In this document: in pieces, positions 1-52,714 of the stretch
How the letters are laid out: every line of letters begins with the position of its first letter
Numbering within the stretch: position 1 is the first letter of the stretch
From: Rhizaria sp. SCN 62-66
Lineage: Eukaryota
DNA length: 53,076 nucleotides
Reading direction: 5' to 3'
Assembly (NCBI GenBank): GCA_001724265.1
Contig: MEDY01000203.1
Span: 1 to 53,076 of the forward strand
The notes under the pieces: model-generated
Told to the model about the DNA's origin: nothing
The model's input: the letters and a program-made list of their open reading frames with translations, nothing else
Databases searched by the model: none
Program-made: the position numbers and the translations under genes

Positions 1-1
1 C

Positions 2-5396: not shown

Positions 5397-8300
5397 TTAG
5401 ACTGTGTCCTCAGCACAATCGTCCACTGTACTGTTGTGGAGCCTTCTGGCCTCGCCAGCAGGGGACAGCGCGGTCGCAAACGCGTTGGAGGTCGAGACGT
5501 TTCTCGCCGACGGTGGCACGAGGTCGTCCCGCGCTTGTTCTTGGAGAGAGGCGACAGGCGCCCTTTCAGTGGTCACAGCCTCTGTAGCGCTCGCAGCAGG
5601 GGTAGCGTCAGTGGTCACGGCGGGAGCCGACTCGCTGCGAATATAGTCGTAGTTGATATTGCCGTCGGACCCACGGTCAGCAATAGCGCTAGAGTCGCCA
5701 ACGACACTGCCGTTGTTGTTGCTGAGGCTGATACTGACAGTGAGCGGCACGTCCGCAGGCTCCTCGAGAGCCATCGGGGCCGACACAGGTTCGGGCGCCG
5801 CGCAGTCGCCGCAGCTACTCTTGGCGCTGACATCGTCCCCGTCAGCATTGTCCGCATCAGGATTGCCAATCTCGCCCACTGCAACGTCGTCGTCAGCGGC
5901 GGCGTCGACACTCGCGGCGTCATATGCCGCGCTCACGGGCGCCGCCGGGCCGGCGCGAAGACTCTCCGCCGCAGTGTTAGTTGGGTTGGGGTTGGAGGTT
6001 ATGTCATGAGAGACGGGAGCAACGCTGGCGCCGGCGCTTGCCATGGTGCTGGAGTACACAAGGCTCTCGTTCTCGAGGCCGCTGCTAAAGACCGCGGCCG
6101 CGTTCGAGTTGGCGCTCAATGTACGCTCACGGTCGACGTCGCTCACGGTCACAGTCGCGTTGTGGGGGTAGTTGCGCGAGTAGCCCGCCACATGAGGAGG
6201 TGCAAAGGGACTACCCACATGAGCCATCGCCGGAGACTGTTGCTCTTGAGAAGCCGTGCCCGCTGCATTCATCGCAGCATCATCAGCAGCAACGGGGGCA
6301 AGAGCATCTCCAGAGTTATCGAAGTGGGCAACACTGTCGCCCCTGAAGTTGCTCGCATTAGGATCAACTGTCACTGGGACTGACATAGCCCTCGCAACCG
6401 CTTGAGGCAGCTGTTGCTGCTGTTGCGGCTCAGTGGGGCGATACAGTGTGCGGTCATGGGGATGACTGATTGCATCCTGGCCGTGACTTTGAATACTACT
6501 AATATAGATGCCACCAGTCGCTCGAGGAGGGGTTCTGAAACCAACGGCAGCTTCGTCGCCACTGAGCGCTCCCACAGGTGCGTAAGTGCCTGAGTTGTAC
6601 AGTCCAGGCGCGAGATACGCGTCTGCCGAGCCCGGGGGAACATCACCACCGTTCGCAGCAGTCACTGCAGCCGATGATACCTTATCCGTCGCAGAGTCAG
6701 AGGCAAGCGCAGGCATGGGAAGCGTCCCTACTGCGGTTGCTGCTGTGACCGAAATACGAGGCGGAATGGCGGGAGGCATCGTTTGGTTGGGACCAACAAT
6801 CGCAGTTGCAACTGCAACAGTTGGATTCAGAGGAGAAGCAGCAGCAGGGGCCGCAAACATTTGAGCTTGCTGATGCTGCTGAAGCAACTGCTCGTTCTGC
6901 TGCTTCAGGTATTCCTTATGCTGCATGTACGCATCCTGCTGCCTCTGGGCAATCATCTCAAGATCGCGTTGCTGCTGCTGGAGCTGCTGTTGTTGCTGCT
7001 GGAGCTGTTGTTGCTGTTGCTCATGCAACTGTTGCTGTTGCTGTTGCAACTGCTGTTGCTGTTGCTGCTGCTGGGGAGTATACTGAGGCATGTAAGGACT
7101 TCCGAATCCCATGTAAGGACTTGTTTGATGTTGTTGCACATACTGGAAGCTGCTATCCGCGTTAGGTTGCTGCTGTACCTGCTGTGGCTGCTGCGGCTAA
7201 GGGTACGCGTTGGGACTCGACACAAACGGCACAGACACATTCATCGGGATCGGCATTGGCATCGGCTGCCACCACATGCCACTGTGCTGTCCAGCGCCGA
7301 CATTCGCGCTCACGGTGTGCATGCCACTAGCATTCACACCAGGAACGCTGCTTGTGTTCATGGGCGCATTGGCAGCGACGTTGGCCGAGCGTGCCTTGCT
7401 CGTCTTGCGCTTCGCACCGGCTCCGAGGCCGGCACCGTCTGCGCCAGCGACAATGGCAGCTACAGCCTCCGCTGCCGCCGCGCCAGCAGCCTGGCCCCGC
7501 GCCGCCTTGCCCCGCACGACAGCGCGCACAAGCGCGCGCGCCGCTCCTGGGGCCGCCGCAGCGACAACGGCGGTCAGCACGCCGACCAGCCTGGCGTGTC
7601 CCGCGGCCGCGGCCGCCAGCGCGCGCCGCTGCTGCGTCACAAGCGCCTCCAGGTCAATGATACGCGCCTGCAGCACGTCGATCTCGCCCAGCTCCGCAAC
7701 GGCGGCCGCGCGCACGCTGTCAGCGCGCCCTGCTGCGGCCGTCGCCCGCAGTGCCCACAGCTGCGCAGACACCGCGGCTTCGGCCTGCGCGCGTGCCTCC
7801 ACGTCCACGGCGGCAAGACCGGCGCGGGAGACCGTCGCGAGCGCGGCGGCGGCGCCGGCGCGGTCGCGCGACGCCGCCGCAAGGCGCACGGCCGCGGCGC
7901 GGGTCAGCGCGGTGAGCGCGTCGCCGCGCGCGCGTGCGCGGGCGGCTGCGGTGTCCGCGGCAGCGGCGGCCTCGCGCGCCGTCTTGGCCTCGGCCAGGGC
8001 GGCGTCAAGACGCGCCTGCAGCGTGCGCGCGGCGGAGCGCGACTCGGCCAGCAGATTCTCGCGCTGCTGCGACAGGCGCTGCGTGCGGTCCTTGTAGGAC
8101 ACGTATGCGGCGCGCAGGCCGTCACGGTCTGCGGCGGCCGCCGCGAGATCGGACCGCGCGCGCGCAAGCTCGGCGACGAGGCGGCGCATTTCGCTGAGCC
8201 CCGCGGCGCCCGTGGTGAGCGCGGCGGCGGCCGCGGCGGCCGTAGTGCTGGCGCTTGCGCCCGCGTTGGTGCCCGTGAGGTAGTGGCTGTGACTAGGGTG

Positions 8301-11300
8301 CATGCCGGGCGACGCTGGCGGGTACGCGGAGAGCGGGGGGACGTAGGGACTGCCGGGAGAGCCGGGCGTCGTTGCTGCGGCGTACATAGCAACGTTACTC
8401 GAGCTGTAGTTGACGTTGGAGTACGTGGGGTTGTACGGGTCAAGTTGTGTGAGCGAGTACGGGTGTGGGTAGCCGGTACTGACATTAGCGGTGTAAGTAC
8501 CCGTCGCAGGGTTGTAAGTGCCAGAGTTTGCGTTCGCGGGGTGTGACAGGGGGAGGATAGCAGGTGATGTGCCTGTGACAGAGTGATAGTTGTTGCCACC
8601 ACTAGCGCTGTTGCTAGCGCCAGCAGCGCTGAACGCGGAAGTAGAGTTGTAGAAACTACTGACTCCGCTATTCACAGCACTCAGACTGCTGCTGTTGCTG
8701 GGTGGGACACCGCCTGCGTTATGGAAAGAAGCACCGGGGGCGTCATTTGCGTTAACGCTGCCACGGCGACTGCGCGTGAGCGTGAGGTTGCTCTGGGATG
8801 CAGAGTGATGCCCATGCCCATGCCTGTGGCCATGACCGGGCACGGTAAGAGCCAGACTGCCCTTGCCACCCTCGGACGCAATGCCGCTGCCTGAAGTCAA
8901 GCCGCGCGACTCAGGCGCGGGCGAGTGAATGCTCATGACGGGGTTGTTGTTGTGGGTGAACGCCGACGAGGATGAGAACGATGAGCGCGACACAGTGCCC
9001 AGTGGCGTGGCCGTGCTGGAAGCGACATTCGGCTGGGCCGAGGTCCATTGCGAGGAAGACCGTTGACGGCTCGACAACACACGCTGCTGGTGATGTTGCT
9101 GCTGCTGTAGCTGCTGATAACCGTAGCCCTGCCCGTGGCCGAGAGCAGCCGCGTGCCCATAGTGATGCGAATTGTGGTTGTGACCGTGAGTCGGCGCCAG
9201 CGACGTCGGAGACACGACTTGGTAGTATGGCGCAACGTCACTATTGCTAGAGTACAAGCGGGTCGTCGCGATCTCGCTATCGTCGAAACTTTGTTTCCGC
9301 TGGTGATAGTGCCGAGATGGGTCAACGCTCCGAGGACCCGTGCTCTCCGGGGAAGCGAATCTCATCAGACTGTGAATACGAGCAAGTTCTTCGTCATCGT
9401 CATCTTCGTAATTGTCGTCGAAGCGATCACTATAGCGACTCTCAACAGAGCCGCTACGGCGAACGGTACTGACTGCGTCAAAACTAGTCTTGCCCGAACC
9501 GGAGCCGTTCATGCGCTTCGCGACCGCGGTCATCATGCGGCGCATCAGAGTCGTGGACGCGGCGCCAGCGCCAGCAGCGCGAGAGGCACTCGCAGCAGAG
9601 CCAGCAGAGCCGCGGCCCACAAGACGGCCGACGTTGGCGCCGTCAATAGAGCCCGCTGCAGCCGCTGCTGCGAGCTGTTGTTGTTGAAACTGAAGCTGAT
9701 GTTGCTGGTGGAACGATTGCGAGTAGCTCTGCGATAAGCGTGGCAGCTGCTGCGTGGGCAACATCACCGTGCTCGACGAGCGCGCGCGGGCGGCATTCAC
9801 GCCCGCACTGTCGTCGTCAAAAGGCCTGCCGGCGACGGCGTAGTAGATCGGGTTCGACACAGTGCTGCTGCTGCGGATACTGCGGCTGATGTAGCCGGCG
9901 CTGGCATACCCGCGCTCGCCGGAGCTTCTAGTGACTGCGGGAGCAGACATACCAAACAAAGACTCGGCCGCGGTCGACTTGCGGTAGTTGTTAGACGGAG
10001 TTGAGGCTGCAGAGTGAGTGACGGGGCTGTGAGAGGCGCCAAAGACGCGGATGCGCAGACCGTCACTGTCACAGCCATTATCACTGTCACCGTTATCGTT
10101 GTCACCGTTATCATGACCACGCTTCGAAACGCGAGCATTCGCACCAGTAACGGCAGCAGCAGCGCTGCCATCTCTGTCCTTGGCAGTGAACTGACTGCAG
10201 TAAGAGTCATCGTCAATGTTGCTGCTGCTGTCGCCGTCACCGTCGCTGCCGCTACTACGAGCCGATGTTGTTGCGACGCTGCTGCCGCTCTCGCCGTGCA
10301 GGCGTGCGAAACGTGGCAGCAGCGGCGCAAGTGCGGCGGCGATCGCGGCGACGGTGGGGGCAGCAGCTACAGATGCCACGGGTGACGGAGAAGGGAATGG
10401 AGCATTCAGCAATGCAGCAACGGACCTATTGATGATGTCGTCACTGTAAGTACCAACGGCAATGTCAGCGCTTTCAGCAGAGCCGCAGCGAGCGCAGTAC
10501 TTGTTGCTTGAAGTATAACGGCCGCATAAATCGCAGTAGTAGTTGTTAGCATCAGCAAATAGCACAGCAGCAGCGTCCATCCTAGACGCACTCATAGATT
10601 CCGACTTAACCGCCAGTAAAGCAGAATCAGTTGACTCAGTCACACCGTTGTCGTTGTCGACGCCGTTGTCGATAGCGGCCTCAAACGCAACGCTCGATGC
10701 AGCTGGAGGAGGAGGAACGCGACTTAACTTCTCAACCACAATCTGCAGCAATTCCGCAACCAACAGCAACGCGGGCGACTCCTCTTCGTCTTCATCGTCG
10801 TCCGCCCGGCGAGCGCGGCGAACGCATTCGGCGCTTGAGTCGGAGCCATCACACACATCCGAGTTCGAGTCTGACTCGTCGCCGTAGGTAGTGCCGTAGT
10901 CCTCCTCTTCCTCCTCATTCACAGCAGTCAGGCGCATCGAACCACCGTCAGCGCCTGTCTTGCTCTTGATCTTATGCTTGCGACCGTGCTTATGCTTGTG
11001 TGTGTTGCTGCGACTTGACTTTTGCCTGAACGCGGCCAAGGAGCCCGACCGGGCCCGGCCCACAGCCGCGCTAAAGCTGGAGCTACTGGTGCCGAGGACA
11101 ACGTTATCACTGTCAGAGCTGCGAACAGTCTTGGATGAGTACGTGTCCACGGCCGTGGTGATAACTGTGCTGTTAGAACCAATGTTACTGGTGTTTTTGG
11201 CACCCGCTGTGCTGCCACCGCTCTGACTAGTTCCGCTGCCGCTCCCGCTTCCACGCTTGCTGCGATCGACGTTGGAACCAGCAGCATCAGCGTCAGTGCC

Positions 11301-14300
11301 CGCGTTATTGTCAGCGTTGATCGCGTCGCTGTCAGCTAGAGACCGCGTGCGCGGAGTCGCGAAAAGGTCGTCACCGTAGCTGTGGCCGTCAGCGTCGCGA
11401 CTCCCGCTGTTGCTGGAGTTATTGGGCATTGGTGCCATGCGGCTCAGACTCGCCCGCGTATTGACTCCAACGCCGATAGCGTTCGCGCTGACGCCTCCAG
11501 TGCCGCCGCTGTACGAGTGTTGCGGCTGTGCCTGCAGACGCGTCCTGCTCGCAGCCGCACCCACAGCGCCGGTCGCGGCCTCGTCGCGCCACCACTCGTC
11601 GGCCGCACTGGGGTCGACGTCGTACGCCTTGCCGCGGCTGACGCCGCCGCTGGCGCCACCGCTCTTTCCCGTCGCCGCGGCGGCCGCAGAGCCCGTATTC
11701 GCAGCAGTCGTCGTCAAGGGAGCGGCAGTCGTCGTCGAGACAGAGTGCCGCGCTCCCTTGGCCCCGGCTCCGGTCGCCGCCGCCGCCGCAGCCGCAGGGG
11801 CCGATGCAGAGCCGGCGGGCCTGGGCGGGGAGAGAGCGCCGCCAGCGCCCGCCGCACCAGCGCCGAGACCGGGGGGCAAGGGCGAGCCTCGGATTCCCGC
11901 GGCGCCGCCCGGCCCTGAAGACATCTGGTTCGGTGGTTGCGCGGGCTGCGAGAGCAGTTGCGCGGTGAGAGCGTTCGCGGCGACGGGGCTCTGGTAACCG
12001 TAAGCTGAGCCGACGGCTGCGCCAGAGAGTGTCGCCGTCACGGAGACGCGTCCAGGGCCGCTGCTGCTGGGCGCCATGACGCCACCAGCGCCTGTCTCAG
12101 TTGCCGACCTCACGCGGTCACGCTGGCCGAGGGCGGCGGTATTGCCGCTGTTGTCCGCGATCGCGGCCGTGGCGGTCCCGCGGCGGCGGGGTGCGGCGCC
12201 GTCGGCCACAGTCCTGTAGCCGCCATCGTCGCCAGCGTCGTCGCTGTTGCTGCCACTGTCGTCGTCCTCGTCGTCGGGGTCCGGCAGCGCGAGGGCCAGG
12301 TATGACAGCGGCAGCAGCCTCTGCAGCGGCGCGATTAGGCACTCAAGCAGGGGGATGCTCACAGTCATGTCGCCCACGGTCACTTCGCCGACGCGGGCAG
12401 CGTGCTCCTGCGCGCTGGCGCTGGCGCTCGCAGCCGCAGCAGCCGCGGCCGCCGCTGCGGCGGTGGCCTTCGCGACGGCGGTTGCGGCGGTGACGGCGGC
12501 GGCAGTGGTGGCGGAGGAGGTGGCCGACACCGAGGCCACGTCGCGCTGCATGATCGCGGGATCGACCACGGTCCCGGCGCGGCCCCATGTCACGGGCGCC
12601 AACGCACTTGCACAAAGATTTGCACTAGGAGCGGAGGCAGTGCTGCCGCCGTTGTTGTTGGTCGTGGCCAGTTGCTGGGCCTGTTGCTGCTGCTGCAGCA
12701 CGGGAGAGCGGTTGGATGTGGGCGGGGTCAGAATTATCGACGACTGGGACCGCGACAGCATCCACGAGGGCGGCGACTGCTTCGCGGCGCTGGCCGCCGT
12801 CGCCGAGGGCGTGTTGCCCGTGGCAGTCGGCGGCGCAAAGAACGAGTCCGCCGCCGACGCCGACGCCGACTGCGCCGTGCTTGCGCTCGCCGCACTAACA
12901 GCAGCCGCGGGACCTGCAGTGTTCTTCCGTCCAGGCGCGGTTGCGGGCACCGCGGCGGTAGAAATCGCAGAGCTAGTGGCAGTCACTGAGGCATTCGAGT
13001 ACACAGGCGAGCTATTCTTGGCGCTAGTCGTGCTTGCATTGTCAACTGCAGTCGGGTGCGTGGCGCCGAACGGGGACAAGACAGCGAGCGACGAAGACGA
13101 CGATGGGAGCGGAGACCCTGACAGCGACGCCCCTGGGTGAAATGAGGACATGGGCGCCAACACACGCGCCTTCGCTGTGGGAGAGTGCACTCTGAAGCTG
13201 AATGGACTGTCAAACACACTACTTCCTGCGGCGGCGGACCGCAGAGCGCTATTGTTGCTAGAGCCGCCGAAACCATTGAAGGCTGCAAAGCCAGCGTTGG
13301 CATCGGAGTCGGAGTCGAAAGCGTAGCCAGGTGAGCTGCTGCTGCTGCTGGCAGATGGGGCGTTGTTGGGAAGAGAAAGTCCAAGGAAACAAGCGATGAA
13401 GCGGGTCTGGCGCAGCAGAGCCTTGTGAGCAGTCAGCGCCTCCGCGTTTGGCCAAAGGATGCTCTCCAAGGCTGCCGTGGACACGTCGGCGGTGACACCA
13501 TTGCTCTCGGCCACGCTCGCGTTTGCGCCAGTTGAGGAAAGATGGGCGAATGCGGGCGGGATAGGAACGATGCAGAACGGCGCATGGTTAGCAGCCCACT
13601 CCTCAGTCACCTCGCCGTCGTCATCGTTATCGCTCGCCGTGTCCTCACCGTCGCTAGCGTGATCGCTGTCACTAGCAGTCGACGAACGCAAGCTGGTGCG
13701 GTCATCCTCTGCGTCGTAGCTGCTTTCGCAGCTCGAGTAGGACTGTGAGGCGCCTCTATCTTCGCTGCTGTTGTTTCTACCTCTATCACTATCATCGCCA
13801 CGTTTCTGGGGCAGTGCGTGCTCACAGTTGCAGTTGCAGCTCGTGCACGCGGCAGCGTCAATATCAGCGTCGGCGATCGCTGCCAGCGCGCGAATTGTTG
13901 CGACGGTGACGCTGGCATTCGAGTCGGCAGCATCGCCGCGGCCACCGCGGCGCCGCTTGGGGGCGCTACACGATTGACTTCCAGCACCAACGATAGACTG
14001 TGTGTGCGGTGGCTTCGGTAGGCGTGATCCAACCAGAGGCAGCGCAGCGAAACGCACTGTAAACACCGCAGATGTGATGTCAGTAGTCGTTGTAAGCGGG
14101 ACAGAGACCAGCGCAAGCTCCATCCGTGGGGGGTTGTCAGCGTAACTGCGAGGCTTGGCGTTACTAGGACTGGTAATCCCAGTCTTCGAACTCGGGGACT
14201 TGGCCGCAGCAGATGTGGGGGAAGGCGGAAAGGCCTGTGGGCTCACTTGACGCGCAGCCTCGCGCAGAGACAGGGCACGCTGCGCGCCCTGCACGCTGTT

Positions 14301-17300
14301 GCTGCTGACGACGTTTGCAGCGCCCGGCGCTGTAGTTGGCACCGAGCCTGGCTTCGTCACGCTGAGGCTGCTGCTTGCACCGCGTGTGACCGTGGTCGTT
14401 GCATTCACGGCCGCAGCGGTCGCAGCGTTTGTGGACGATGACGACGAGGAAGAGGATGAGGAAGGACGGAACCTGAAGAAGGCACGAGCCGCAGCGGCCG
14501 CAGCAGAAGCAGCGGCAAAGGCGCGCGCGCGAGTGCTGGTCGCCTCGGCCGTAGCCGCTGCAGCTGCAGAGGGCGGCTCAGTAGCAGTGGCGGTCGTAGA
14601 CGGAGCGCGTGGCGAAACCTTACTCTGACCAATACCAGCGCTCACGCTCACTGGAGAGCTAACAGATCCCGGGGCGGCTGCATGTCCGCCCTTACTTTGT
14701 TCAGAATCACCGCTGACTGGCGTCTGAGTGGGACTGGATAAAGGTGTGACAGCGGGCACAGGAACGAGCGCGGGCGCAACGGCGTGCACGGCGACGTGTG
14801 TGTTGAGCACCCTGACCGCGGCCGCAGAGCCGCAGTACAGCCCCGCCCGGCCGCGCGCAGGCACCACGAGCGCCACGCGCGCGGGCGCAAGCGCGGTGCG
14901 GGGCTGTGAGAGCGAGAGCGCACGCGCAGTGGCGGCGGGCCACGCAGAGCCGTCGAGCGCGGTTGCCGGGGCGACGTAGCCGGTGCGCGCGGTGACCGAA
15001 GCAGACGAAAGATATGCGTCAATGAGGGGCCGTTTGGCCTCGTGACTCAACTTCGAGAACGCATGAGTCGGACACTCCGTCTCGCTGTCACTCCCTGTCG
15101 TCTTATTCTCGTGGGCATCTTGGTCATTGAAACTCTTACTGTAGATGTTATCATCGTCGCTGCTGCTGCTGCTGTCGTGAACCTTCAGAGCGGTCACGGC
15201 AGCGGGCATGGCCTGAGCAAAAGCGCGTGCACGAGAGAGCGGCGACAACAGCGGCGACAGCGGCACGGGACTTCCACCAACAGAAGCATCAGCGCGCGTG
15301 TTAGCAGCAGTTGCGCCCACACTAGATCGGCGACGGCGGCGCGGGGACGTCCGTACATCGCTCGCATCATGTTGAGTCGCGCCTATGTTCCTCAAATTCG
15401 CAGCAGCCGCTTTGTTGCCGGCAATGACGCGCGTGACTGTCATGCCAGTCGACTTCTTCGCGTCAACATCGACCCGATCATGTGTGCTGTGAGCAGAAGC
15501 AGTGTTGACCGTGAGCTGAGACACCGCAAGCTGGCGTCCGCTGCCGCCATCGCCGTGAGCAGCGCCTGCGTGACCGTGCGCAGAAATCAAGTGACCGCTG
15601 GGGCTCGTGAGCAAAGTGTACGCGTCGTCCGCGGCAGCCGCAGCGGCATGAGCAGCGGCGGCGGCAGCAGCAGCTCTGATCGCCCCGCTCTTGCCCTTAC
15701 TCTGTCTACGGTGGCCATCGAACATGTTGGAGTCGTCGTCCTCTTCCTCCTCACCCTCAACCAGCGACGGCAGTCCGCCAGCATTCGCTGCGATAACAGC
15801 TGGCGCGTCTCCGGTCGCAGCTCCGTAACCGTGGCCGTGGCCGTGGCCGTGCCCGCGACTAAAATTGGGACCAAGGTTGTGATGGGTCTGCAGCTGGTGC
15901 GTCAGGAGCGTCACCGTCGCGCTGCCGCGCGGTGAGAGCCAGCCGGCGCCGACTGTCGAAGCCTCCGCCACCGCGGCAGCTTCGGCCGCCGCAACCGCCG
16001 CGGCGGCATCCGCGTCAGCCTGCGTGCCACGGCCGCGCACCTTGGACGGCGACGCCGCCGAAAACAGCAGCTGCGACGACGTCGGCGCAGCGCCGGCAGC
16101 TGAGACAGAGCGGGGTGAGCCGACAGCGGATGCAGACGCGAGGACAGAAGCATTATCAGCCGCTGGCGCAGGCGAGAGCGCGGACGCGTGGCCACTGCGA
16201 ACGCTGGAGTTAATGGTCAAGTTGAGCCGCTCGCCTGTGCGTGGGGACACCGCAGTGTCGAAGCGCCCCAGCGATACAATGTGCCGGGCAGGAACAACAA
16301 CAGGGCCCACACCGCCGGTGATGGAGTTGCCACTAATGAGCGTGGTCGTGGTGTTGCTGAAAGTTGGGGCAAAGGCGGGCGGGGACAGTATGCCAGCGGA
16401 GGTTCCGGCGGCCTTGGCTGCGTTCTTCGCAGCAGGAGCACCGCGCGATGCCAAAGGCGTGGACGGGGAACCGGGCACTGGTGACAGCGCAGGTGCGCCG
16501 CCGTGACTAGTTGCAGCAACACCGTAACCGTTACGAGGCGACGCTGGCGACAGCGGCGTGAAGAACGTCGCCGGGGATAAGAGTCCGCCGTTCACAGCTG
16601 ACCCAGAATTAGGAGGGCGTAGAGAGTTGCCTCCGGGGGCAATACGAGAGGCTGATGTGCTGGAAGTAAGGCCGCCAGTACTGGCATTGGTGGCAATGGT
16701 GTTGGCAGCGCGAGGACGAATGTAGTACGAGAGCGCACTCGCCTTGGGTGTCGCTGTGGGCGCGCCAGACGCAATGGCGTCGAGACTGGAGCGAGGGGAA
16801 CTGGGCCCGTTCGGCGTGCAACTGCCACCCGCATTGGGTAAGTCACTGCTGACACCGAATAATGCGTCTTCGCCCAGTGAGGGCGCATGATCGTACTGCA
16901 AGGGCTCCTTGTTGGCAAACTGCGCAGTGGCTGCGTCGCCGGGCGCGAAAACGGACGTGGAGCGCACCAGCGGCACGCGCCCGGCGACGACGGAGAGCAT
17001 CTTGTCGATGGCCCGCAGCGCGCGGACCACGGATGCGGGCGGCAGAGGGGCGAGCCAGCGCGAGAGACGGGGCCGGTCCAGCGCGCGCGCGTCGGTGGCA
17101 GTGACGGAGCCGGGCGGCAGCACGACTGTCTCGATCGGAGTCGGCTTCACAGTGGATGCTGGAACTGCACTGGCGTTCACGCTGATAGAGGCGGTTTGCG
17201 GCGGAAGCAAAGCTGCATAGCCACCAGTGGTGACGACCGCGCTGATAGCAGCGAGCGCAGCCATGGTTGCAACATCGCTCGCAGCAGCACCAGAAGCTAC

Positions 17301-32300: not shown

Positions 32301-35300
32301 CCCAGCAGCAGCGGCGGCCTTCGCGGCCCCTCCAACCACGGACACAGCGTTGACAGAGGCGGGGACGGTCGTTACGTTGGACGCGGCCTTGTGGCCACGC
32401 TCGACCGCAGCTGCTGCGGTCGTCGGGGGCTTGAGTTTGGAAGCGGCAACACGCGGGCCAGTTGCAAGATTTGCAGTGTGTCCGAGCGTCGCATTCGCGG
32501 TCGCAGCAGCCTTGGCCGCAGCCGCGGCCGCTGCGGTCGCAGCAGCAACCGCGGAGACAGAGGCGGAAGCAGACGCAGAGACCGGCGGCAATGTGGCTGC
32601 ACGTGCTGCAGCGAGCAAGCGGGAACGCGACGGGGCAAGGAAAGTTAGGCCGCGCAGCTCGCCGCTCACTGTCACGGCGCTGACAAAGCGACTGCGACTC
32701 GTCGGTTTGAGGGCGCGTGACTCTGAAATACTCACACTATTGATGTTGCTACTGTAACTGTTTCCGCCGCTGTTGTTGCGGGCACGGGTCTGTTTACTCG
32801 CAGCCGTGGTATTGGTTTTCGCCCGCGGAGTCGAACTCTGGCTCACATCAAGTCCATGAGCGTTTGCGCTCCCACCTGCATCGACACCAGATCTTGCGAA
32901 ACTTGAACTGTTAGTCGTAACAGTGAGCTGTGACGTAACCGTAAGCGCCTCGAGACTCGACATCAAACTGTAGCCGCGCTCAGCAGTGTCTATAGTGCCA
33001 TGCGCATCGACCGCGGTCGATATGCTGCTAGAGTCAAGCAGAGGCAGCCACCCAGTGGCAAACGTGCCAGCGGCTGCCGCGACAAGAGCGCTAATGCTAA
33101 CTGCTGGCGGACTCGCAGCAGAAGCGAGAGCAGCATTGTCGCTCGTCGCTGAGGGGCTGTGCGCATAGTGACCGTGAGCAAAGAGCTTCGGGTTAACGCC
33201 GAGCAATGCGCACGCAAAGGTCCCAGCTTCCGCAGCTGCCAAAGCGGCATCTGAGTTCGCGAATTGCGGGCTAGTGCTATAACTACTGTGAGTGGTGAGA
33301 GACGACGGCAGCTGCAGTGCCCATGCACCACGGCAAGTGACTGTAATGACTTCGCTTTCGGCGTCGGCAGTGATGGAGAATGCTGAGACGAGATCAGATG
33401 CAGCACCTGTCGGGGAGTCAGACACTGTCGTGTTCGTCGAGAAAATCACAAAGTGGCCATTATCAGCCGCGCTCGGCAGCGTGGTATCAGCATCTTTAGA
33501 GTCATGCTCATTCGCAGCAGCGGGTCCGGAAACAGAATCAGTCTCGTTGGCTGTGTTTGCATCAGCTGCAGTCTCATTATCGGTGCCAGACGCTGCCACG
33601 GGAGCGCGGCGCGGCAGCAATGTGACCGTGATCGACTGCGCTGACGCGCGCGCACAGAGGGGCGCCGTCGCGATAACAGGGTCAGTGACCGTGAGCAACA
33701 GCACCGGCCGCTCAGTGCTGGCCGTCGCTGCACTCACGAGTGCCGGGACCAGAGAGTGCACGTGTGCGGGCGAAAGCTGGCGCGTACAGAGCCGCATCTG
33801 CCGCTGCAGCTCCAGCTGGAAGCTCTGCGTCGACTGCAAATGCAGCTGCTGCTGTTGGCCACGGCCCGGAAACGAGCCGTAAGAGCTCTGGCCGCGGGAC
33901 GCAGCAGCGGCGGCGGCAGCGGCGGACGCGGCGACTGCGGCGGCGGCAGCAGCGGTGGCGTTACTGTTGCTGCTGCCGCCCGACGCTGCGCCGCCGCTGC
34001 GGGTCATGGCGCGCGACGGCCGCGACTGGTACTGAGACTGGGACTGAGACAGAGACTGGGGCGGGAGCTGCGACTGCTGGCGCGACGGGAGTCGGGACAG
34101 CGACCGCGGCGACAGCGGCGAATGCGACTGTGAACCAGCACCCCAGCCGCCAGAAACCTCGCGATCTTCGTCGTTGTGGCTGTAGCTCGTCACAGCGTCA
34201 GTTGGTTCACCATCAACGCTGCTGAATGCGCTGTGGTTTGAATTCGCGCTATGGGTTGTGTTCATGTGCATTGTAAAGCTGTCCTCGTCCGCCTCCTCTT
34301 CCCGCTCGTCCCACCCGCCCAGGCCCGCGGCCCTGCTCCGGCCAGCGCCGCTGTCACCGCCGCCGAACGCGCGGAGCCCGGAGGCCCGCGGCGTGGCCGC
34401 AGCGGAGGACGGCGTGGGTGCGGGCTGAGGGGGCGGAAGCGCAAGGCCGCGGGTGGCGGGCACCGGGAGTGCAACCGCAGCTGTGCACACAGTGGCGGCT
34501 GCGGCGACGAGCAGGCGGTGGTGCTCCGGGTCTGCGGCGGGGAGTCCGTAGAAGGGAATCCACAGGACGGCCGCGGAGGCCAGCAACGGGGCCCATGGGG
34601 AGCCGCTGCCCCCGAGCCCAGCCGCGTGAGAGCTACTCGCAGCACGCGCCGTGCTGGGCTGCGCGATGGAGCTGGCGCTGGCTGAGGGGGGAATGGTAGG
34701 CAGGCCGGTGCAAGTGCTGTGGTGCGGGAATGCGAGAGCGAGCGCGGGCAACAGGGGAGTCCCGGACAGCAGTGCCAGCGACAGCATCTCGATCGCAGTC
34801 GGCCCCGGTGCAGCAGCGTTATAGCCCCCAGCACTAGGACCAGAACCAACACCGGCGACAGTACCAGCGCCAGTCGAAGCAGAGGCGGAATCAAGGCTTG
34901 CTGCAGGCGTAACGGACGAGGCACCCGAACACGCAGGCAAGGTGGCGGCAGCGGCCGCGGCGGAGGCGGCAGCAGCGGCAGCGGCTGTGGCAGCAGTTGC
35001 TGCGGCCGAGATCGGGAAATGCGACGTCCTGAACGGCCTGCGCGCGCTGCCGCTAGCAGTGCTCGCGGCCGCAGCGGCTGCGGCAGCAGCGGCGGCAGCG
35101 GAGGCAGCGGAGGCAGCAGAGGCAGCCGCGCTCGCATTAACCGCATCAGCCCCGGCGTTGCCGACGCTGCCCGCTGCATTCGCCGCAGCAGCAGCAGCAG
35201 CAGCAGCAGTGGCCGCAGCGGCCGCAGCGGCCGCAGCAGCAGCAGCCGGGTCGCCTCCGGGCCGGCCCGTGGCCGCGGCAGCACTCGTGGCGGCCGCAGC

Positions 35301-37829
35301 GGCCGCAGCCATCGTCGCCGCGTACGTCGCGGTCGCGCTGGTGCTGGCCGCAACGCCCGCGAGAAAGGCGGCGGACGGGGGCGTCAGGTCTGTCGAATCA
35401 AAGCTAAGCCGCGCCGACGCAACTGTGATGTCGCAGATGACGTCAACAATGGGCGCATCAGGGGACAGTAAAAGCGCAGCAGCAGCAGAGTCGTGGACAG
35501 TGTTCGAGTTCACAGAGCTGCGGTGGATTGCGGCAGGGACTGGCGGGGCAAGCCTGTTGCAATTGATGTGACCATAGTTGCTGTTGATAGCGCTGCTGCT
35601 CGAGCCAGCGCGAGCCTGCGGCTTGCGATAACGGCGGCGGCGGCATCCGCGCGCGTGCCCGCTGCCGCTGCAGTGCCCGCGCGCCGCGGCCGCGGCCGCA
35701 GTCGCCGCGAGCGGGTTGGGGTGCGCGAGCACGGGCGTGGGGTCCGACAGCGGCAGCGGAAAATCGCGACGCAGGTTCCTAAAAAAGCGGTTGATCACCT
35801 TCTGGGTGCGCGCGGAGTGCGCCAGCGACGGTGGCAACACGAGCTGGGGGCCGGACATCGCGGTCGCAGCGGCGGCAGCAGCGGAGACAGAGGCGCCCGC
35901 GCCGGTGCTGAGCTGGCCGTTCGCGCTGTTACTGCGCCCCCGGTTCGCAGCGCTGTTGCTGGCCGCCACCGCAGTCGTCACGATGGGCGGGCGGGCAAAC
36001 AACGGCCCCGGCGCGCGCTGCCAGCGGCCCAGGGTAACAGTGAGCGCGCCCAGCGTCGCCACGGGCCGCAGCCCCACGGTCGCGCCTCCGAAGGCGGTGT
36101 GCGGCGTGGCCGCGGCGACCGACAGAGTGACGGTGGCGACGGAGAACTCGCGCCCCGCCGCCGAGCCGAAGCAGTGGCGGTGACGCGAGATGTGCGCGAG
36201 GGAAGCGAGGACGACTTCGCTGTGCGTCGAGCCCAGCTCTTCTTCAGTCGCGTGTGCTTTCGGCTGCTGCTGCTGCTGCTGGAGCCTTTGCGAGTTGCGG
36301 CAGTCACACTCACTCTCACTCTCGCTGCCGCTGCTGTGCACTTCTGTGAGCAATTGTGTCTGCGAAAGCGCTGCAGTGCTCTTGGCGCTGTGGGCAGCAG
36401 CACCGGCAGTTGCTTTTGACTCAGTTTCAGTCTCTGTGTCGGTCTCTGTCTGACTACGGACGGCAGTCTTCGCGTTATTGTTATTGTTATTGTTATTGTT
36501 GTTGCTGTTACGGCGATTGTGTGCAAAGCGTGCACGGCCCTTGTGACTCAACGCATGAAGAGCCTTCGCGGTCAGCGCGTGGGAAGTTAGGCCGCCAAGC
36601 GTAACGCGTGCAACAGTCACGTACGCCCCGTTGGCGTTGTGCGCACGGCCCACAGCCGCAGCGCTACTGCTGGCGCCCGTGTCAGTGAAGATAGCAGACG
36701 CGGCGTCGTTGTCAGCAGCGGCCGCAGCGGCGGCAGCAGCGGCAACAGCGGCGGCAGCGGCAGTCGCAGCAACATCGGGACTCGTGCTAGAGCTTGCCGC
36801 CGCCGCAGCCTCGGCAGCGCTCGCGTAGCCATGACCGTGACCGTGACCGTGAGCGTCACTGCCGGTGTACGCGCCTCCCGGGGAGGACAGCGAGGCGAAG
36901 CTGCCGCGGCGAACCGAGGTGTCGTAGCGGTGCAGATACCCGCCCACGGCGCTCACACTGCCACGCGCCCGGCCGCCGCCGAGATCCGCAGCGCCGACGA
37001 TAGAGACACTATCACCAGAGGCAGCAGCGGAGCGACCGTGAGTCGCGCTGAAGTGGGTGTGCGCGACCGCAGCGCCCGCCGCGGCCGCCGCGCGCGCCGA
37101 GAGCCCGTGGGCCGGGGCGCTGAAGTGTCCGTGCGCGCGCATGGCGTTGAGCGCGAGCCCGTGCGCAGCGGGGGCGGGCGCTGGGACCGCAACCGCGACG
37201 GACAGCGAGGCGACCGTGAACTGCGTGCGGGAGAAAGCGGTGCGCAGCGTCTTCTCGTTCACGCCGGTCAGCATCGTCAGGAACAGGTCCTTGAGCAGCG
37301 TCGACAGCGTCAGCGCGCTCGCGGCAGCGTCCGGGGCAGTGCGAGCATTGCTGTCAGTGCCGTCGCTCGCGGTCGCGGTGTTGGGCAGAGCGAGGAGTGT
37401 GGTTGTGGCGGTGTTGATCGTGACTGTGGGCGCGCTGTCAAGGAAGTCCGTCAGCGGCAGCGTGACTGCAATCGAGTCGAAGTGGGCCGAGTCGAACTGC
37501 CACCGCATGCCGCTGTTATCCTCCCCTGTGTTTGCGCTGTTGGCGGCGCTTGAGTGAACAGCGGAAGCAGACGCAGACTCAGTGCTGCTGCCAACGCCTG
37601 TGCCAGCCCTAAAAGGACCGTGCTGCGGTGCGGCCACGGTGTCTGCGGTGGCAAAAGCGCGCGAGAGCGCCGCCAGGACGTCCTTGCGCAGCGACACGTC
37701 GCGCAGCTCGAATGACGAAAACGATGTGATTGTGAGTTCGACGCCGGGCCGCAGCGGGCCCGCGAAGAGCAGCTCGAGCCGGTGCCGCAGCGGGCCCGTC
37801 AGCAGCCACGGAGCAAGGCGGGAAAACAT
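5397..37829 (-). CDS. Giant VPS13/chorein-N (bridge-like lipid transfer)-like protein, ~10,810 aa including one internal TAG at 7199-7197; heavily expanded by Ala/Ser/Gln low-complexity inserts
   Basis: The 10,210-aa ORF (37829-7197) continues in frame through TAG (PNAYP*PQQPQQVQQQ) into the 580-aa ORF and ends at TAA 5399-5397. The N-terminus (FELRDVSLRKDVLAAL...FDSAHFDSIAVTLPLTDFLDSAPTVTIN) fits the chorein-N pattern. TLLTVTPLFFARNDTDVWLEV (~20880-20820) and WTRLLTFAPPLVVDNSL (~18570-18520) fit VPS13 VAB/SHR-BD repeat signatures. The ORF is certain; the family call is inferred. Confidence 0.7.
6965..7075 (-). repeat. CAG/CAA repeat encoding poly-Gln tracts in the C-terminal part of the giant protein
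   Basis: Reads PQQQQQQQQLQQQQQQLHEQQQQQLQQQQQQLQQQQ on the minus strand. Confidence 0.9.
36474..36509 (-). repeat. AAC/AAT repeat encoding poly-Asn inside the giant ORF
   Basis: (gttatt)n on the + strand, read as NSNNNNNNNNNN on the minus strand. Confidence 0.9.
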
Positions 37830-38532
37830 CGCGGGGACGCGCGCTGGGCTGCTCCGGGGCGATGCAGAGGCGCGCGGAGAGGCGCGAGCGTGAGTGGAGC
37901 TGAGACAGGATTCGACAGACGAGTGGATCCGCTCTGTGTGTGCGACAGAACAAAGTCTCTAGACAAGTGCGGCAGTGGCTCGCGACTTTTCAAATGGTTT
38001 GTGCGCTGTGGGTAGCGCCTTTTGAGTGGATATCAAGGGAGACGCAAGAGAGAACGGGGTGTTGGGGTCCCGACCTGCTTGAGTGGCGCTGTGGTGGGGG
38101 GGCAAGATGCAAGTCAGTAGGCGATTGGCAAAATTTCAGAGACAAGGATGATTAATAAAAAATACCACACAAAAGTTTGTTTCAATTCCCATCTTCAAAT
38201 CTCAGCGACTATTAACGATCCCTGTGTCGCCATAAAGACAAAACTAAAAGTCAATTTCCTCTCGCGCCATCCAAGTGGTCGAGCACGAGCCAGCAAGCAG
38301 TGCAAGAAATCGCACACAATTGAGTTTTCACAAGATGTATCCACAAATCACTGAGCAATCAGGAACAAAATTTATCTTTGTATGGATTAACTGCGCGTCA
38401 CACGCGTCTTTTAAAAAGTAAAAGTATAAACATATCAAAAAAAGCAACACTGAACAAGAATTCTGACATGGCCGCATCGCTCACACTCATCAGTGCAAGG
38501 TCACCTCGACTCGCGTGCAAGCGACTGCCCCC

Positions 38533-40016
38533 TTACTCGGCGACGAACTCGTCGAGGATCGTGGTCTGCACGAGCTTGCCGGTGACGAGGTAGGGGTCCA
38601 TGTTGCTCGCAGGCCGGCGGTCCTCGAAGTAGCCCTTGCCCTCGAGCTTGGCCGTGCGCGGGATGCGGATGCTCGCGCCGCGGTTCGCAACGCCGAACGA
38701 GAACTTGGAGATGGGCGCGGTCTCATGCGCGCCCGTAAGGCGGCGCTCGTTGCCGACGCCGTAGACGGCAATGTGCTCCTCGTGCTTGCGCTCGAGCTTG
38801 GAGATAGCCAGCAGGATCGCCTCGAGCCCGCCCTCTGCGCGCATGGCCGCAGTCGAGTAGTTGGTGTGGCAGCCCGCGCCGTTCCAGTCGCCCGGGATCG
38901 GCTTCGGGTCAAAGGAGACGATGACGCCAAAGTCCTCGCAGACGCGCAGCAGCAGGTAGCGCGACACGATCAGCTGGTCGCCGCCGGCGATGCCGACGCA
39001 CGGGCCGACCTGAGGGGGATCAAGTTGATAACAAAATAGATGTTTGAGTGGAAATATGACGTGAGTTGTGTTGCAAAAGTAAATAAATACAACAATTCAT
39101 ATATGTTTCAAGTATATGTACGATTTTTATCCATATATTCGAGCATATCATTGAGATTTGTTCGCTAGAGAGTGAAGTTAGCGTACCTGGTACTCCCACT
39201 GGCCGGGCATGACCTCGGCGTTCGTGCCGGAGATCTGGACGCCGGCGTAGAGGCACGCCTTGTAGTGCGCCTCCACGACCTGGCGGCCGTAGCTGTTTTG
39301 CGTGCCCGCAGAGCAGTAGTACGGGCCCTGTAACATCAGATATAAACAAAGACACAAAGACAGAAAAGTTAGTTCAAGAATAAATTTAAGTGAAAGATCA
39401 TCATATACAAAGCTCAATTTAAGTTGAAAAATAGGGTATCAAAAACAATGCAATATAATTGAAAGATACTGTGGTGCGATATCAAGCAGTGACGTCAGTC
39501 AAGATAAGTAGAGCTCATGCAACGCACCTGGGGTCCCGGGTAGCCGAACTTGGGCCAGCCGAGCGGCGTGACGCCGTCGCGGTCGAAGAGCGTGTACTCC
39601 TGCTCGATGCCAAACCAGGGCACCTCGGCCTCGGCGGCGGCCATCGCGAGCGCGGCCTTGCGGCGCGTGTTGGACGGGATGGGCGTGTTCTTGCCGTCGG
39701 GCAGCACGCACTCGCACAGCACGATGTAGTTGCCCTCGACGGGGCGCATCGGGTCGGGGTAGTAGGCCACGGGCAGCAGGTACACCTCCGAGTCGCGCCC
39801 AGGGGCCTGCTTAGTGGAGGAGCCGTCGAAGTTCCAGATGGGGAAGTCGGCCAGCGACTCAGGCTTGCTGGTCATGGTACGCGTCTTGGAGCGGATGTCG
39901 GCGCCGCTGCTGGCCGTGCCGCCGATCCAGATGTACTCGGCCAAGTACGAGCCGCGCTGCGGGAGCGACGCATAGCGGTTGGTCACCTCCCAGGAGAGAA
40001 CGGGTGCGTAGGACAT
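38533..40016 (-). CDS. GLUL: Glutamine synthetase type II, ~368 aa; exons 40016-39528, 39327-39187, 39009-38533
   Basis: Diagnostic motifs [88 protein letters not shown] and [15 protein letters not shown]. Two phase-0 introns (GTGCGT...CAG, GTACGC...CAG). TAA stop. Confidence 0.97.
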
Positions 40017-40450
40017 CGCGGGGAAAGCGGAAGTCTCTAAGACGTTAGACAACAGTGGAGCAGCGGTCAAGCGGTTGAGCGTTTGAGAGTGAAGGGGGAG
40101 GGGAGAAAATGAAGAGTTTGGGTGAGATCAAACGAAGGAATTGAGTGCTGAGCGAAAATATTCTGGAAGAATATGTGACCCGATATCGAGTATATCTAAG
40201 AAACTTGACAAGAACATGCGGAGTCGTGGTGGGATGCAGCGGCGCGCGAGCGGTGGTCGAGACAGTTGAATGACCCCTACTTGGGCAGAAGCAGGATATC
40301 CATGCATACCACTGCGAAAACTACCCTCGGGTTGACACAAAAAAAATAACAGTGTGTAAAGTATACGGTCATTAAAAATAAAAGCCGGGGCACGACGACT
40401 GCATCGAAAGTTTTCTCTGATACAACAACTCACACGAGGTCGACAACAAT

Positions 40451-40535
40451 CAGACTGACTGACCACCGACCTGCCAGTCAACCGCCCCAACCACAAATCG
40501 CTTTTTAGTCGTTCGGTCGGCAGTCAGTCAGTTTG
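40451..40535. repeat. Imperfect 21-bp inverted repeat in the divergent GS/DDX46 promoter region
   Basis: cagactgactgaccaccgacc (40451-40471) versus ggtcggcagtcagtcagtttg (40515-40535): 18 of 21 positions are complementary. Confidence 0.7.
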
Positions 40536-40797
40536 GCAGTTAGTCGGACACTCGCAACGGTCTCTGGCTTGGTCACCGCAGCGATAGGGACGCGCCGTGC
40601 ACGCAGATCTCCGTTAACTGAGTTATGGGTGCTGTCTGTGTTTTTAATAAGTGTGCTCTGTATTTCTTTCTTTTAATGTCGCTCAAACTCTTCAGCTTAC
40701 CTGTCGTCTCGTTCCCTCTCTTCGTCGTCTTTCCTAGTCCACACCCGCCGAACACTCCTCCGCCTCCACACGCGCGCGCGGCTCACAAACACTCGTC

Positions 40798-43700
40798 ATG
40801 TCCAAGCCAGCCGTGGGCATTAAGATCACACTTGGTGGCAAGACCTCCACCGCAGGAGCGCGCCCCCTCAGTTTCGCCAAGCCCGCCGCCTCCGTGCGCT
40901 CAGTCTTCTCCGCCTTCGACGCCTCGTCGGACTCCGCATCGTCTGCTTCTGCTGCTGCTGTGACAACAAATCACAACAGCGCGTTGTCCTCCGCCGTGGT
41001 CCCGGATGCCAAGCGCGCGCGCCTTGCTTCTGACAACACCTCCGACGCTTCTGGCTCTGATGAGAAGCTGAGCAGTATCGACGAGTTGATCGCCTCAGGC
41101 TTCCTCGACAGGCCTCTCGACGCCAGCACGGTCAGCGCCGCCGCCGCCGGCGACGACGATGACTAGGGCGACAGCGCCAACGTCGACGGAGGTGACGCCA
41201 TTGCGGCCGCGGTGGCTGCGGCCAAGGCTGTGGCCGTCGCGGCCGCCAAGTCCGCCGGCGTCACTGTCCCCACCACCACAAACACAAACAAAGTGGGCAC
41301 TGCCTCGGCTGCTGCACCTGTGAACGGCTCTACTGGCGGCGCCGGCGCTGCGATGACGGACTCCGTGCCCGACGCGAGCGCAAGTGCTGCCGCGGCTGCG
41401 GCTGCTGCTGACGGGGGCGATAACAGTGTCGACGCGTACCTCGCGACGCTGATGGCCACGGTTAGTGACCGTGAGCGCGCCGACATTGCGGCCGCTAACG
41501 CGCTCAAGGCCGTCCCCGCCGCGCAGCTCGCGCAGCACGGCAACGCGAACGCCGGTGCGGGCGCAGCTGCCGCCGCTGACGCTGCCGCCAAGTCCGGCGA
41601 CGCGTCCGCCTCATCTGCGGCTGCGAGCATGAGCACTGGCGCTGGCGCTGGCTCTGGCGCTGGCTCTGCTGGTGCGATTGGGCGCGTGTTCGACGACGAA
41701 GAGGAGCTTGACGAGGCCGACTACGCGGGCGGCGACACGACCGTAGCAGCGGCCCAGCGCGCCTTTGCGGCCACCATCGCCGCGCGCGCGCAGAAGCTGA
41801 TCAAGCCGTACGCGCCGCCGGCCGAGGGCGAGCGCCCCGTGGTCAAGGCGCTGTACCGCGAGCACCCAGACGTGGCCGCGCTGAGCGATGCCGAGGTCGC
41901 GGCCGCACGCAAGGGCCGCCTCGACTCGGTGCGTCTGCGCGGACTCCGCATTCCGCGCCCCGTGAGCAAGTGGATCCACTGCGGCTTCCCAGCGAAGGTC
42001 GACGCCGTGCTCGCTGCCTAGGGCATGCCCGCGCCCTTCCCAATCCAAGTACGGCGATTTTGCATTGTGATATTGCGTAGGGATTAAATATGTCTTTTTA
42101 TACGCTTGCGTGTTTAAGAGGCGGCTATTTTTCACATCTGACTTCATTTTCCGCTTGTTCTGACTTGTTTTTTCTGCTTCATTTTAGATGCAAACGCTGC
42201 CCGTGATTATGAGTGGCCGCGACTGTATTGCCTGCGCCAAGACCGGCTCCGGCAAGACCTTGGCGTTCACGCTGCCCATGGTCCGCCACATCTTGGCGCA
42301 AGACGACCTCGCGCCCGGCGACGGGCCCATTGCGCTCATCCTCGTCCCCACCCGCGAGCTCGCTGTTCAGGTGCGTAAAACAAAAGTCGCTTCTTCAACG
42401 CAAAATCACATAATTACCGAGAATTATAATGATATATAGTACGAATTGTAAGTATGTTCTTATTTGAATGTCATTTCTTCTATTTACTGCATTTTATTGT
42501 TTTGTAGATCACGACCGAGGTGCGCAAGTTCGCCAAGCCGCTGGGGCTGCGCGCCGTGGCCGTGTACGGTGGGCCCAACATCTCGGAGCACATCGCGAAG
42601 CTCAAGGCGGGCGCGCACATTATTGTCGCGACGCCGGGCCGCATGATCGACCTGCTGACGGTGAACAACGGCCGCACGACGAACCTCACCCGCGTGAGCT
42701 ACCTGGTCATGGACGAGGCGGACCGCATGTTCGACATGGGCTTTGGTGACCAGGTGCTGCGCATCATCGCCGGCACGCGCCCAGACCGGCAGACGCTGCT
42801 ATTCAGCGCGACCTTCCCCCGGGTCGTCGAGGCGGCCGCGCGCAAGGTGCTTACTCAGCCTGTCGAGGTCGTCATCGGCGGCCGCTCTGTGGCGTCGAGC
42901 GACGTGACGCAAATCATCCACATTCTGACTGAGGAGCAGAAGTTCGCGAAGCTGACCGAGATCCTTGCGCAGTGGTACGAAACTGGCAACATCATCATCT
43001 TCGTCGACAAGCAGGAGTCGGTGGAGCTCATGTTCCGCCACCTGGCGATGGCTGGCTACCCGGCACTGGCGGTGCACGGTGGCATGGACCAGATCGACCG
43101 CAACGCCATGATCGCCGACTTCAAGAACAAGATCCGCACGCTGATGGTTGCCACGTCGATCCTCGCGCGTGGGCTTGACGTCAAAGACCTGGTGCTGGTG
43201 ATCAACTACGACATCCCGACCCACTACGAAGACTACGTGCACCGCATCGGCCGTACGGGCCGCGCCGGCGCGCACGGCACCGCCATCACGTTCCTCACCC
43301 CCGACCAGGACGCGCACGCGCCGGACTTGGTCAAGGGGCTCGAGAAGGCCGGTCAGGAGGTCCCCGCGCCGCTTGCCGCGCTTCTGGAGAACTTCAAGGC
43401 CAAGGTCAGCCGCAACGAGGCGCGGTACCGCAGTGCCACGCTCGGCTACAAGACCAGCGGGTTCAAGTACGACGAAGAGGAGGCCGCGGCGCGCGCCGAC
43501 AGCCAGCTGTTGCAGCGCGCCGCGCGCGCCGAGGCGAACAACATGATGACGGACGAAATCACCGAGGCGCTGGAGCGGAAGCGCGAGCGCGACGAGGCCA
43601 AGCGCGCCGCGGCGCTCGCCGCGAACGTCGGCGCCAAGGCTGCGGGGGCTGGCGCTGGCGCTGGCCCTGGCGCTGCAGGTGGCGCAACAGCTCTATCGCG

Positions 43701-44274
43701 CGCGGGCTCCGTTCTCGCCAACAGCAGCGCCGCTGGTGGCGCTGCAGCTGCGGCGGGCACGCCCGCGGCGGGGGCGGTGCTGAGCGCGGAAGACGAGGCA
43801 GCGAGCCGCCTGGAGGCCGCGCTGGCGATGATGGCCCAGGTCGAGCGCACCGTGGGCGCCGCTGCCGGGGCCGCCGCCTCCGCTGCCGGGGCTGCGGGCG
43901 CGGGCGCGGGCGCGGTGACGACCGCGGGCGCGAGCGCGGGTGTGGCCCGCATCGCGACGTCGGTGGTGGAGCGCTTCAGCGCCGAGCTGGAGGTCAACGA
44001 CTACCCCTCGCAGGCGCGCTGGAACGTGCTCAAGAAGCCCTACTTGGATATGATCCGCGAGGAGTTTGGCGTCGCCGTGACGTCCAAGGGCCAGTACCGG
44101 GAGCCCGGCGCGGCTGGCGCGGACGGCGTGCGGCCGCTATACGTGTTGATCGAGGGCAAGTCCGAGGAGATGGTGCGGCGGGCCAAGATGGAGATGCTCA
44201 ACACGGTCGAGCGTGACGCCGCACTGGTGCGGCCCGACGTTGCCACGGCCACGCAGGGCAAGTACAGCATCTGA
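40798..44274 (+). CDS. DDX46: Pre-mRNA-processing DEAD-box RNA helicase Prp5/DDX46, ~1,066 aa; exons 40798-42048, 42188-42370, 42508-44274; internal TAG codons at 41164-41166 and 42019-42021
   Basis: Motifs: [28 protein letters not shown] (Q-motif), [58 protein letters not shown]46-specific [13 protein letters not shown] and the C-terminal KH-like [15 protein letters not shown] are present. Introns 42049-42187 and 42371-42507 are GTRCG...TAG. TGA stop. Confidence 0.93.
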
Positions 44275-46803: not shown

Positions 46804-47041
46804 TTAATTGCGGCCGGCGCGCGCGCTGCGGCGCGGCAGTGCGGTTTCGTCGCCCTCGCCCTCGTCCTCGTCCTCGCCGTCGCTGCCCTCAGCAACCGCG
46901 CCGTCGGCCGCAGACGCGCTCGCACTGTTGCTGTTGCTGTTGCTGCCGGTCCCGCTGGCGACGCGGCGACGCTTGCTCGCAGGTGCCGGTTTGCCCGTCG
47001 CCGCACCGCTCGCGTCATCACCAGCAGCGGCAGTGGCCGTC

Positions 47042-47075
<34 letters not shown>

Positions 47076-52682: not shown

Positions 52683-52714
<32 letters not shown>

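Follow-up and report, generated by a model that had tools for sequence, protein, structure and literature searches.

In-frame TAG codons in two genes of a GC-rich eukaryote from bioreactors and wastewater suggest that UAG may be read as an amino acid

We analysed a stretch of 53,076 nucleotides (nt), contig MEDY01000203.1, referred to at its full length as the window. Two of its genes, one encoding a predicted DEAD-box helicase of the DDX46/Prp5 type and one a giant intronless open reading frame (ORF), contain in-frame TAG codons. The contig comes from a GC-rich eukaryote with spliceosomal introns that was sampled in bioreactors and wastewater. Its GC content is 0.50-0.74 in 2-kb windows and lower in the intergenic parts, and the stretch recurs in sequencing runs of 7 studies of bioreactor, wastewater and related samples. 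A first-pass annotation had proposed that UAG is read as sense in this organism, probably as glutamine, while UAA and UGA remain stops. The three in-frame TAGs on which it relied (41164-41166, 42019-42021, and 7199-7197 on the minus strand) were confirmed in coordinates and frame. The features of the two genes are as follows.

40798-44274, plus strand: predicted DDX46/Prp5-type helicase gene of three exons, ending in TGA at 44272-44274
40798-42048, plus strand: helicase exon 1, 417 codons including two TAGs, followed by GT at 42049
42188-42370, plus strand: helicase exon 2, 61 codons, with GSGKT, preceded by AG at 42186-42187 and followed by GT at 42371
42508-44274, plus strand: helicase exon 3, with Pfam matches DEAD, Helicase_C and KH_12, coding to 44271, with TGA at 44272-44274
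41164-41166, plus strand: in-frame TAG in the helicase's N-terminal part, which is of low complexity, reading GDDDD-TAG-GDSAN
42019-42021, plus strand: in-frame TAG in helicase exon 1, ahead of the Q motif, within the gapless DDX46 alignment
5397-37829, minus strand: giant ORF of 10,810 codons without introns, from ATG at 37829 to TAA at 5397, with one TAG inside
7197-7199, minus strand: in-frame TAG of the giant ORF, codon 10,254 in the frame from stop to stop and codon 10,211 counted from ATG 37829

The helicase gene carries the most informative of the three codons. In searches against PDB sequences, its three exons matched human DDX46 without gaps and in order: exon 1 matched residues 304-399 (E 2.3e-07), exon 2 residues 401-460 (E 9.8e-20), and exon 3 residues 461-816 (E 1.2e-134, with DDX42 as a weaker match at 7.4e-77). 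The relatives of this protein carry DDX46/PRP5 in their source names. We therefore assign the gene, from its sequence, to the DDX46/Prp5 DEAD-box helicases, as both the core and the C-terminal KH_12 domain are present and the collinearity includes the region before the Q motif. The gene is otherwise intact, with GT..AG introns, no frameshift and no in-frame TAA or TGA. Its C-terminus matches those of homologues, with alignments that reach residues 1005/1006, 1100/1100 and 1068/1068 in three of them. The TAG at 42019 stands nine residues ahead of the glutamine of the Q motif, opposite a histidine in human DDX46 and a glutamine in DDX5. As it lies inside the gapless DDX46 alignment and the three exons are collinear, it is not a gene end.

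The other TAG of this gene, at 41164, is found 122 codons downstream of ATG 40798, in the same frame and in a region rich in alanine and aspartate. The GC content at third codon positions (GC3) was 0.746 before this TAG and 0.785 after it, and 0.48 over the 100 codons that precede the ATG. A near-perfect 20-bp hairpin made of alanine codons (41203-41246, plus strand) begins 36 nt 3' of the codon. The 120-nt fold after this TAG had a z-score of -3.13, and 1 of 200 shuffled sequences folded equally well. The hairpin may be mere palindromy of GCN repeats.

The giant ORF belongs to a frame of 10,853 codons (37958-5397, minus strand), in which the TAG at 7199-7197 is the sole stop codon. The 599 codons beyond it scored as coding in the same frame under the codon model of the upstream part (log-likelihood +297 and +191, both versus the shifted-frame models); a control stretch of the ORF gave +294 and +284 in the same test. 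Of 20,000 shuffles, not one kept the tail open. The parts before and after the TAG are not set apart by an AT-rich spacer. Given the same-frame coding tail and the lack of a spacer, this TAG lies within one continuous coding region.

Several properties of the giant ORF were noted alongside. Its codon bias is weaker than that of the neighbouring genes (GC3 of 0.67 versus 0.87-0.89). It is an intronless orphan, while the small genes of this organism have several introns. The protein had no Pfam match (E <=0.01, or <=0.001 for the part beyond the TAG), and PDB searches with its first 1,500 residues and with the last 1,500 before the TAG gave none either. A first impression of a VPS13/chorein-like N-terminal domain found no support in Pfam or PDB and was dropped. 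A further TAG occurs in the same frame at 37959-37961 (minus strand), 43 codons upstream of the first ATG. As the frame has no ATG further upstream, we took it as part of the 5' leader and did not count it.

We then examined whether the TAGs stand in other assemblies. Contigs of four runs (X3, X4, X6 and X7) were compared with the window at the helicase sites, and the counts given here refer to the contigs listed. In X3, which belongs to another study, two contigs without a single differing letter (39774-41517 and 41514-42573) span both helicase TAGs, and in X4 a contig with no differing letters (41639-42542) spans the TAG at 42019. No alternative letter was found at either helicase TAG among the listed contigs of the four runs, bearing in mind that contigs drop rare variants. 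In a protein collection, the ORF terminated by TAG 42019 was present on 4 contigs, and the tail after TAG 7197 appeared as a separate ORF of 564 amino acids on 6 contigs. These recurrent TAG-bounded ORFs fit a stop codon at the same places in those assemblies too. Given the letter-identical contigs of X3 and X4 over the helicase TAGs, the TAGs are almost certainly not an artefact of sequencing or assembly.

To see which codons end genes, the ends of all eight genes of the window were read one by one. The six genes other than the helicase and the giant ORF are listed here.

1-94, plus strand: 3' end of a gene that continues beyond the window, with TAA at 92-94
1302-2407, plus strand: three-exon gene model with TGA at 2405-2407, its exon borders predicted from the sequence
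3368-4192, minus strand: gene of 274 codons with TAA at 3368 and no Pfam match
38533-40016, minus strand: type II glutamine synthetase (GS), exons 40016-39527, 39326-39185 and 39007-38533, ending in TAA
45002-45816, plus strand: small gene of 109 codons, exons 45002-45004 (predicted), 45197-45309 and 45603-45816, with TAA at 45814-45816
46804-53076, minus strand: alanine-rich ORF of at least 2,090 codons, continuing beyond the window, with TAA at 46804, no in-frame TAG and no Pfam match

The tally was six TAA (92-94 on the plus strand; 3368, 5397 and 38533 on the minus strand; 45814-45816 on the plus strand; 46804 on the minus strand), two TGA (2405-2407 and 44272-44274) and no TAG, and the claim that none of the eight genes ends in TAG was thereby borne out end by end. 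The GS gene had been said to end in TAA at the expected position. Its alignment extends to residue 353 of the 356-residue maize GS and the TAA follows six residues further on, which agrees with that statement. UAA and UGA thus appear to terminate translation at conserved protein ends, those of GS (TAA) and of the helicase (TGA), and neither TAA nor TGA was found in frame in 14,717 codons. The proposal that both remain stops holds on these grounds. The absence of TAG from eight ends would arise by chance with P ~0.06 if TAG had a share of 30%, and with P ~0.25-0.4 at 10-16%; these shares are those reported for phyllopharyngean ciliates with the standard code (PMC11687900). Eight ends are too few to show that UAG is unused as a terminator.

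Taken together, these observations suggest that UAG is probably decoded as an amino acid in this organism, with UAA and UGA kept as stops. We favour this because a nonsense codon closely precedes the Q motif in what is otherwise an intact spliceosomal-helicase orthologue, in an organism that splices its genes and with identical letters across studies, and because the same gene holds a second TAG and a neighbouring gene a third. Three sites in one contig are not proof of a changed genetic code. The earlier claim that UAG is sense is accordingly retained as the best explanation, given the position within an intact DDX46/Prp5 gene and the cross-study letters, and not as a demonstrated fact. By analogy with the codes described so far, a tRNA with the anticodon CUA would read UAG, and an eRF1 with lost or weakened recognition of UAG would leave it unterminated.

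We next considered which amino acid UAG might encode. The 125-residue region before the Q motif was searched exhaustively and without a profile. Among 193 matches at E <=0.001, the best 150 were used, and the closest non-self match among these had 39% identity. In the column of TAG 42019, 128 of 149 non-self homologues have a residue and 21 are unaligned. The column is variable and does not diagnose one amino acid, with L 22, Q 19, S 14, A 13, R 11, H 9, N 8, E 7 and K 6; the remaining 19 are other residues. The other two TAG sites are of low complexity. The Pro/Gln-rich context of TAG 7197 hints at glutamine, and the run of aspartates at TAG 41164 would suit glutamate equally well. The codons one step from TAG are CAG, GAG, AAG, TTG, TCG, TGG and TAC/TAT. 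The argument that a Gln-rich context and the single CAG>TAG step favour glutamine was therefore not upheld, as the alignable column is variable, GAG>TAG likewise needs just one step and one of the TAGs lies in an acidic run. On priors, glutamine is the most likely amino acid, with glutamate, leucine and others remaining as candidates.

Searches for relatives with which to compare these positions were also made. Word-index protein searches at near-equal lengths, with helicase exon 1 (whole, and residues 300-417) and with the stretch beyond TAG 7197, found nothing apart from the window's own ORFs, so they gave no close relative that could show the letters at the TAG positions. The helicase core was nearest to an Atlas cluster whose few labelled members are mostly diatoms, a weak lead only, and a search with the GS exon gave mixed bacterial labels.

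A number of observations weigh against decoding of UAG as sense. There are only three TAG sites, in two of the eight genes (3 of 14,717 codons, ~0.2 per 1,000), and two of the three are of low complexity, where truncation or a downstream start might be tolerated. An ATG (42025) lies two codons downstream of the remaining one, TAG 42019. Given the codon usage here, TAG results from 62-65% of single-base nonsense changes, and that three of three are TAG is not significant under random nonsense mutation (P ~0.24-0.28). The case thus depends on the positions of the TAGs, and not on the three-of-three or zero-of-eight counts. TAG accounts for 0.7% of CAG+CAA+TAG. In the giant gene, the ratio of TAG to CAG is 1/275 and that of TTG to CTG 104/281; a neutral synonym of CAG would be expected there ~100 times, which makes TAG ~100 times rarer. 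The widespread use of the codon that is typical of described cases was not seen here, and the lineages described as having reassigned UAG use it far more than this contig. No relatives sharing the helicase core were found in metagenome, genome or viral contigs. No tRNA gene or Rfam family was found in the 53-kb window, nor does it contain the gene for eRF1. Among the listed contigs of X6 and X7, no clean mRNA contig lies over the TAG sites.

The RNA data from the same two runs included two further observations. The introns of the helicase gene had no splice joint among the listed X6 and X7 contigs. Run X6, a poly(A) metatranscriptome, contains an unspliced GS contig (38855-39189), which represents DNA or pre-mRNA, and not clean RNA, so that this run by itself does not serve as evidence on mRNA.

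The rarity of TAG implies that the change is recent, or that UAG is decoded at a cost, or that one of the rival explanations holds. Since UAG is so extremely rare in frame, a sense UAG would probably be a recent change or one decoded at a cost. A more specific scenario, which we put forward only tentatively and hold to be doubtful, is that a GC-rich eukaryote outside the ciliates is caught at a very young stage of UAG reassignment, in which UAG has disappeared from gene ends, is decoded by a suppressor tRNA and is re-entering genes at ~0.2 per 1,000 codons.

The alternative that survives best, although we regard it as unlikely, is that the organism uses the standard code and that the TAGs are tolerated nonsense alleles. 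The giant protein would have lost a dispensable tail, and the helicase copy would be a young pseudogene, or would be started downstream, with another copy functional. This would fit the very low density of TAG, which suits rare accidents better than a freely used codon, and the proportion of nonsense mutations expected to give TAG (62-65%). The low complexity of two of the three sites and the ATG two codons after TAG 42019 also point this way. However, a start at ATG 42025 would need scanning of a leader of ~1.2 kb with upstream ATGs, and would lose the conserved region that matches DDX46 304-390. A decaying copy is also difficult to reconcile with a DDX46/Prp5 orthologue that has two TAGs but is otherwise free of frameshifts and stops and keeps its splice sites. 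Contigs from other studies have identical letters, no alternative letter appears among those listed, and a third case occurs within the same 53 kb.

Less likely still is that UAG is generally a terminator and is read through at these sites, in a programmed or context-dependent manner, or that it is ambiguous between stop and sense. Such ambiguous codes are described from some ciliates and trypanosomatids, and the low density of sites would suit this explanation, as would the hairpin that starts 36 nt after TAG 41164 (20 bp; z -3.13). The fold after TAG 7197 was unremarkable, however (z +0.75), and the three contexts have no motif in common, two of them having G at +4. Two successive readthrough events in a splicing helicase would be expected to multiply the loss of yield. 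TAG was also found at none of the eight gene ends.

Correction of the TAGs in the mRNA, through U-to-C editing or through removal of a short unconventional segment, is in our judgement very improbable. It would be compatible with the lack of a clean RNA contig over the sites, and the pyrimidine-rich sequence before each TAG could mimic a 3' splice site. The introns with support, in contrast, are 136-293 nt long, start with GTACG or GTGCG and are AT- or CT-rich. Excision of a segment ending at TAG 42019 would remove residues from the gapless alignment, and the nearest GT upstream of TAG 7197 would give a segment of 10 nt and break the frame. Tiny introns ending at the TAGs were rejected for these two reasons. 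Nuclear U-to-C editing of mRNA is, to our knowledge, not an established mechanism. Sequencing or assembly errors are scarcely credible, as the X3 and X4 contigs are letter-identical at the helicase sites and the TAG-bounded ORFs are present on 4 and 6 contigs; nothing was found in favour of such errors.

Reading of UAG as sense, with UAA and UGA as stops, was compared with the codes described for other eukaryotes. In Iotanema spirale (Fornicata), UAG encodes glutamine, the stops are UAA (104) and UGA (15), and 204 in-frame UAGs were reported in 126 genes (Panek et al. 2017, PMC5304391). The contig resembles Iotanema in having only UAG in frame, UAA as the main and UGA as the minor terminator, and no UAG at the eight gene ends that were read. 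In Iotanema, UAG occupies positions of hyperconserved glutamine, whereas here there are three UAGs in eight genes and one variable alignable column. In the rhizarian exLh (Sainouroidea), UAG encodes leucine, the stops are UAA (56) and UGA (15), 384 UAGs were found in 71 genes, and among the leucine codons of the proteasome genes UAG is the most frequent (PMC5304391). If UAG is sense here, the likeness to exLh would lie in the reassignment of UAG alone outside the ciliates, and the split of terminators between UAA and UGA follows the same pattern in both. Unlike in exLh, leucine is neither supported nor excluded in our case (L 22 and Q 19 in the alignable column).

Among ciliates, UAG encodes glutamine in Hartmannula sinica as well as in Trochilia petrani and leucine in metagenome-assembled genomes from TARA (McGowan et al. 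2024, PMC11687900). In Hartmannula and Trochilia, UAG accounts for 18.5-31.8% of glutamine codons, and 78-91% of genes contain it (PMC11687900). These phyllopharyngean ciliates would share with our contig the reassignment of UAG alone, and they share with it UAA as the preferred stop and an origin in environmental assemblies. They differ from it in genome style, as this contig is GC-rich (0.50-0.74), with one gene that spans 32 kb and with introns 136-293 nt long. The karyorelict ciliates, Condylostoma and Blastocrithidia, which have ambiguous stop/sense codes, likewise translate a stop codon inside genes; the same codon also ends genes there, whereas TAG was seen at 0 of 8 ends here. With so few TAGs, the contig does not look like one whose reassignment is old and freely used, as in the lineages that the first-pass annotation cites.

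Full-text literature searches listed no paper on a GC-rich or wastewater eukaryote with a reassigned UAG, although the case may already have been published. If confirmed, a UAG-only reassignment would be already known in kind, and what would be new is the lineage, outside the ciliates by its genome style, and the unusually low density of UAG. Few eukaryotic lineages are known in which UAG is reassigned while UAA is not (Iotanema, exLh and some ciliates), and each new one tests whether the two are mechanistically separable. A non-ciliate case in which the codon is still very rare could help to order the events, namely the loss of UAG terminators, the gain of a CUA tRNA and the change in eRF1. 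It would, if true, represent the stage just after a codon has been freed, which codon-capture and ambiguous-intermediate models predict and which the described lineages have long passed. In practical terms, gene calling under the standard code would split the genes of this organism, with the N-terminus of the helicase and the tail of the giant protein filed as separate ORFs.

Some minor observations concern the remainder of the contig. The alanine-rich ORF at 46804-53076 (minus strand) has a GC3 of 0.867. A second set of contigs was found in X4 and X6 (38671-39756 and 42546-42585), in which the differences from the window are mostly spaced by multiples of three. From this spacing we conclude that a close relative, a strain or a species, appears to co-occur in the X4 and X6 samples.

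Splicing in this part of the contig is supported by spliced contigs of X7. In the GS gene, the introns 39008-39184 and 39327-39526 (minus strand) are supported by a contig with joints at 39007/39185 and 39326/39527, and in the 109-codon gene the GT..AG intron 45310-45602 is supported by a contig joining 45201-45309 to 45603-46454. The first exon of the 109-codon gene, which lies outside this RNA contig, apparently consists of the ATG alone (ATG|GTACGT). The 5' splice sites at 45002-45006, 45310, 1363, 1635, 42049 and 42371 are closely alike (GTACGT, GTACGG or GTGCGT).

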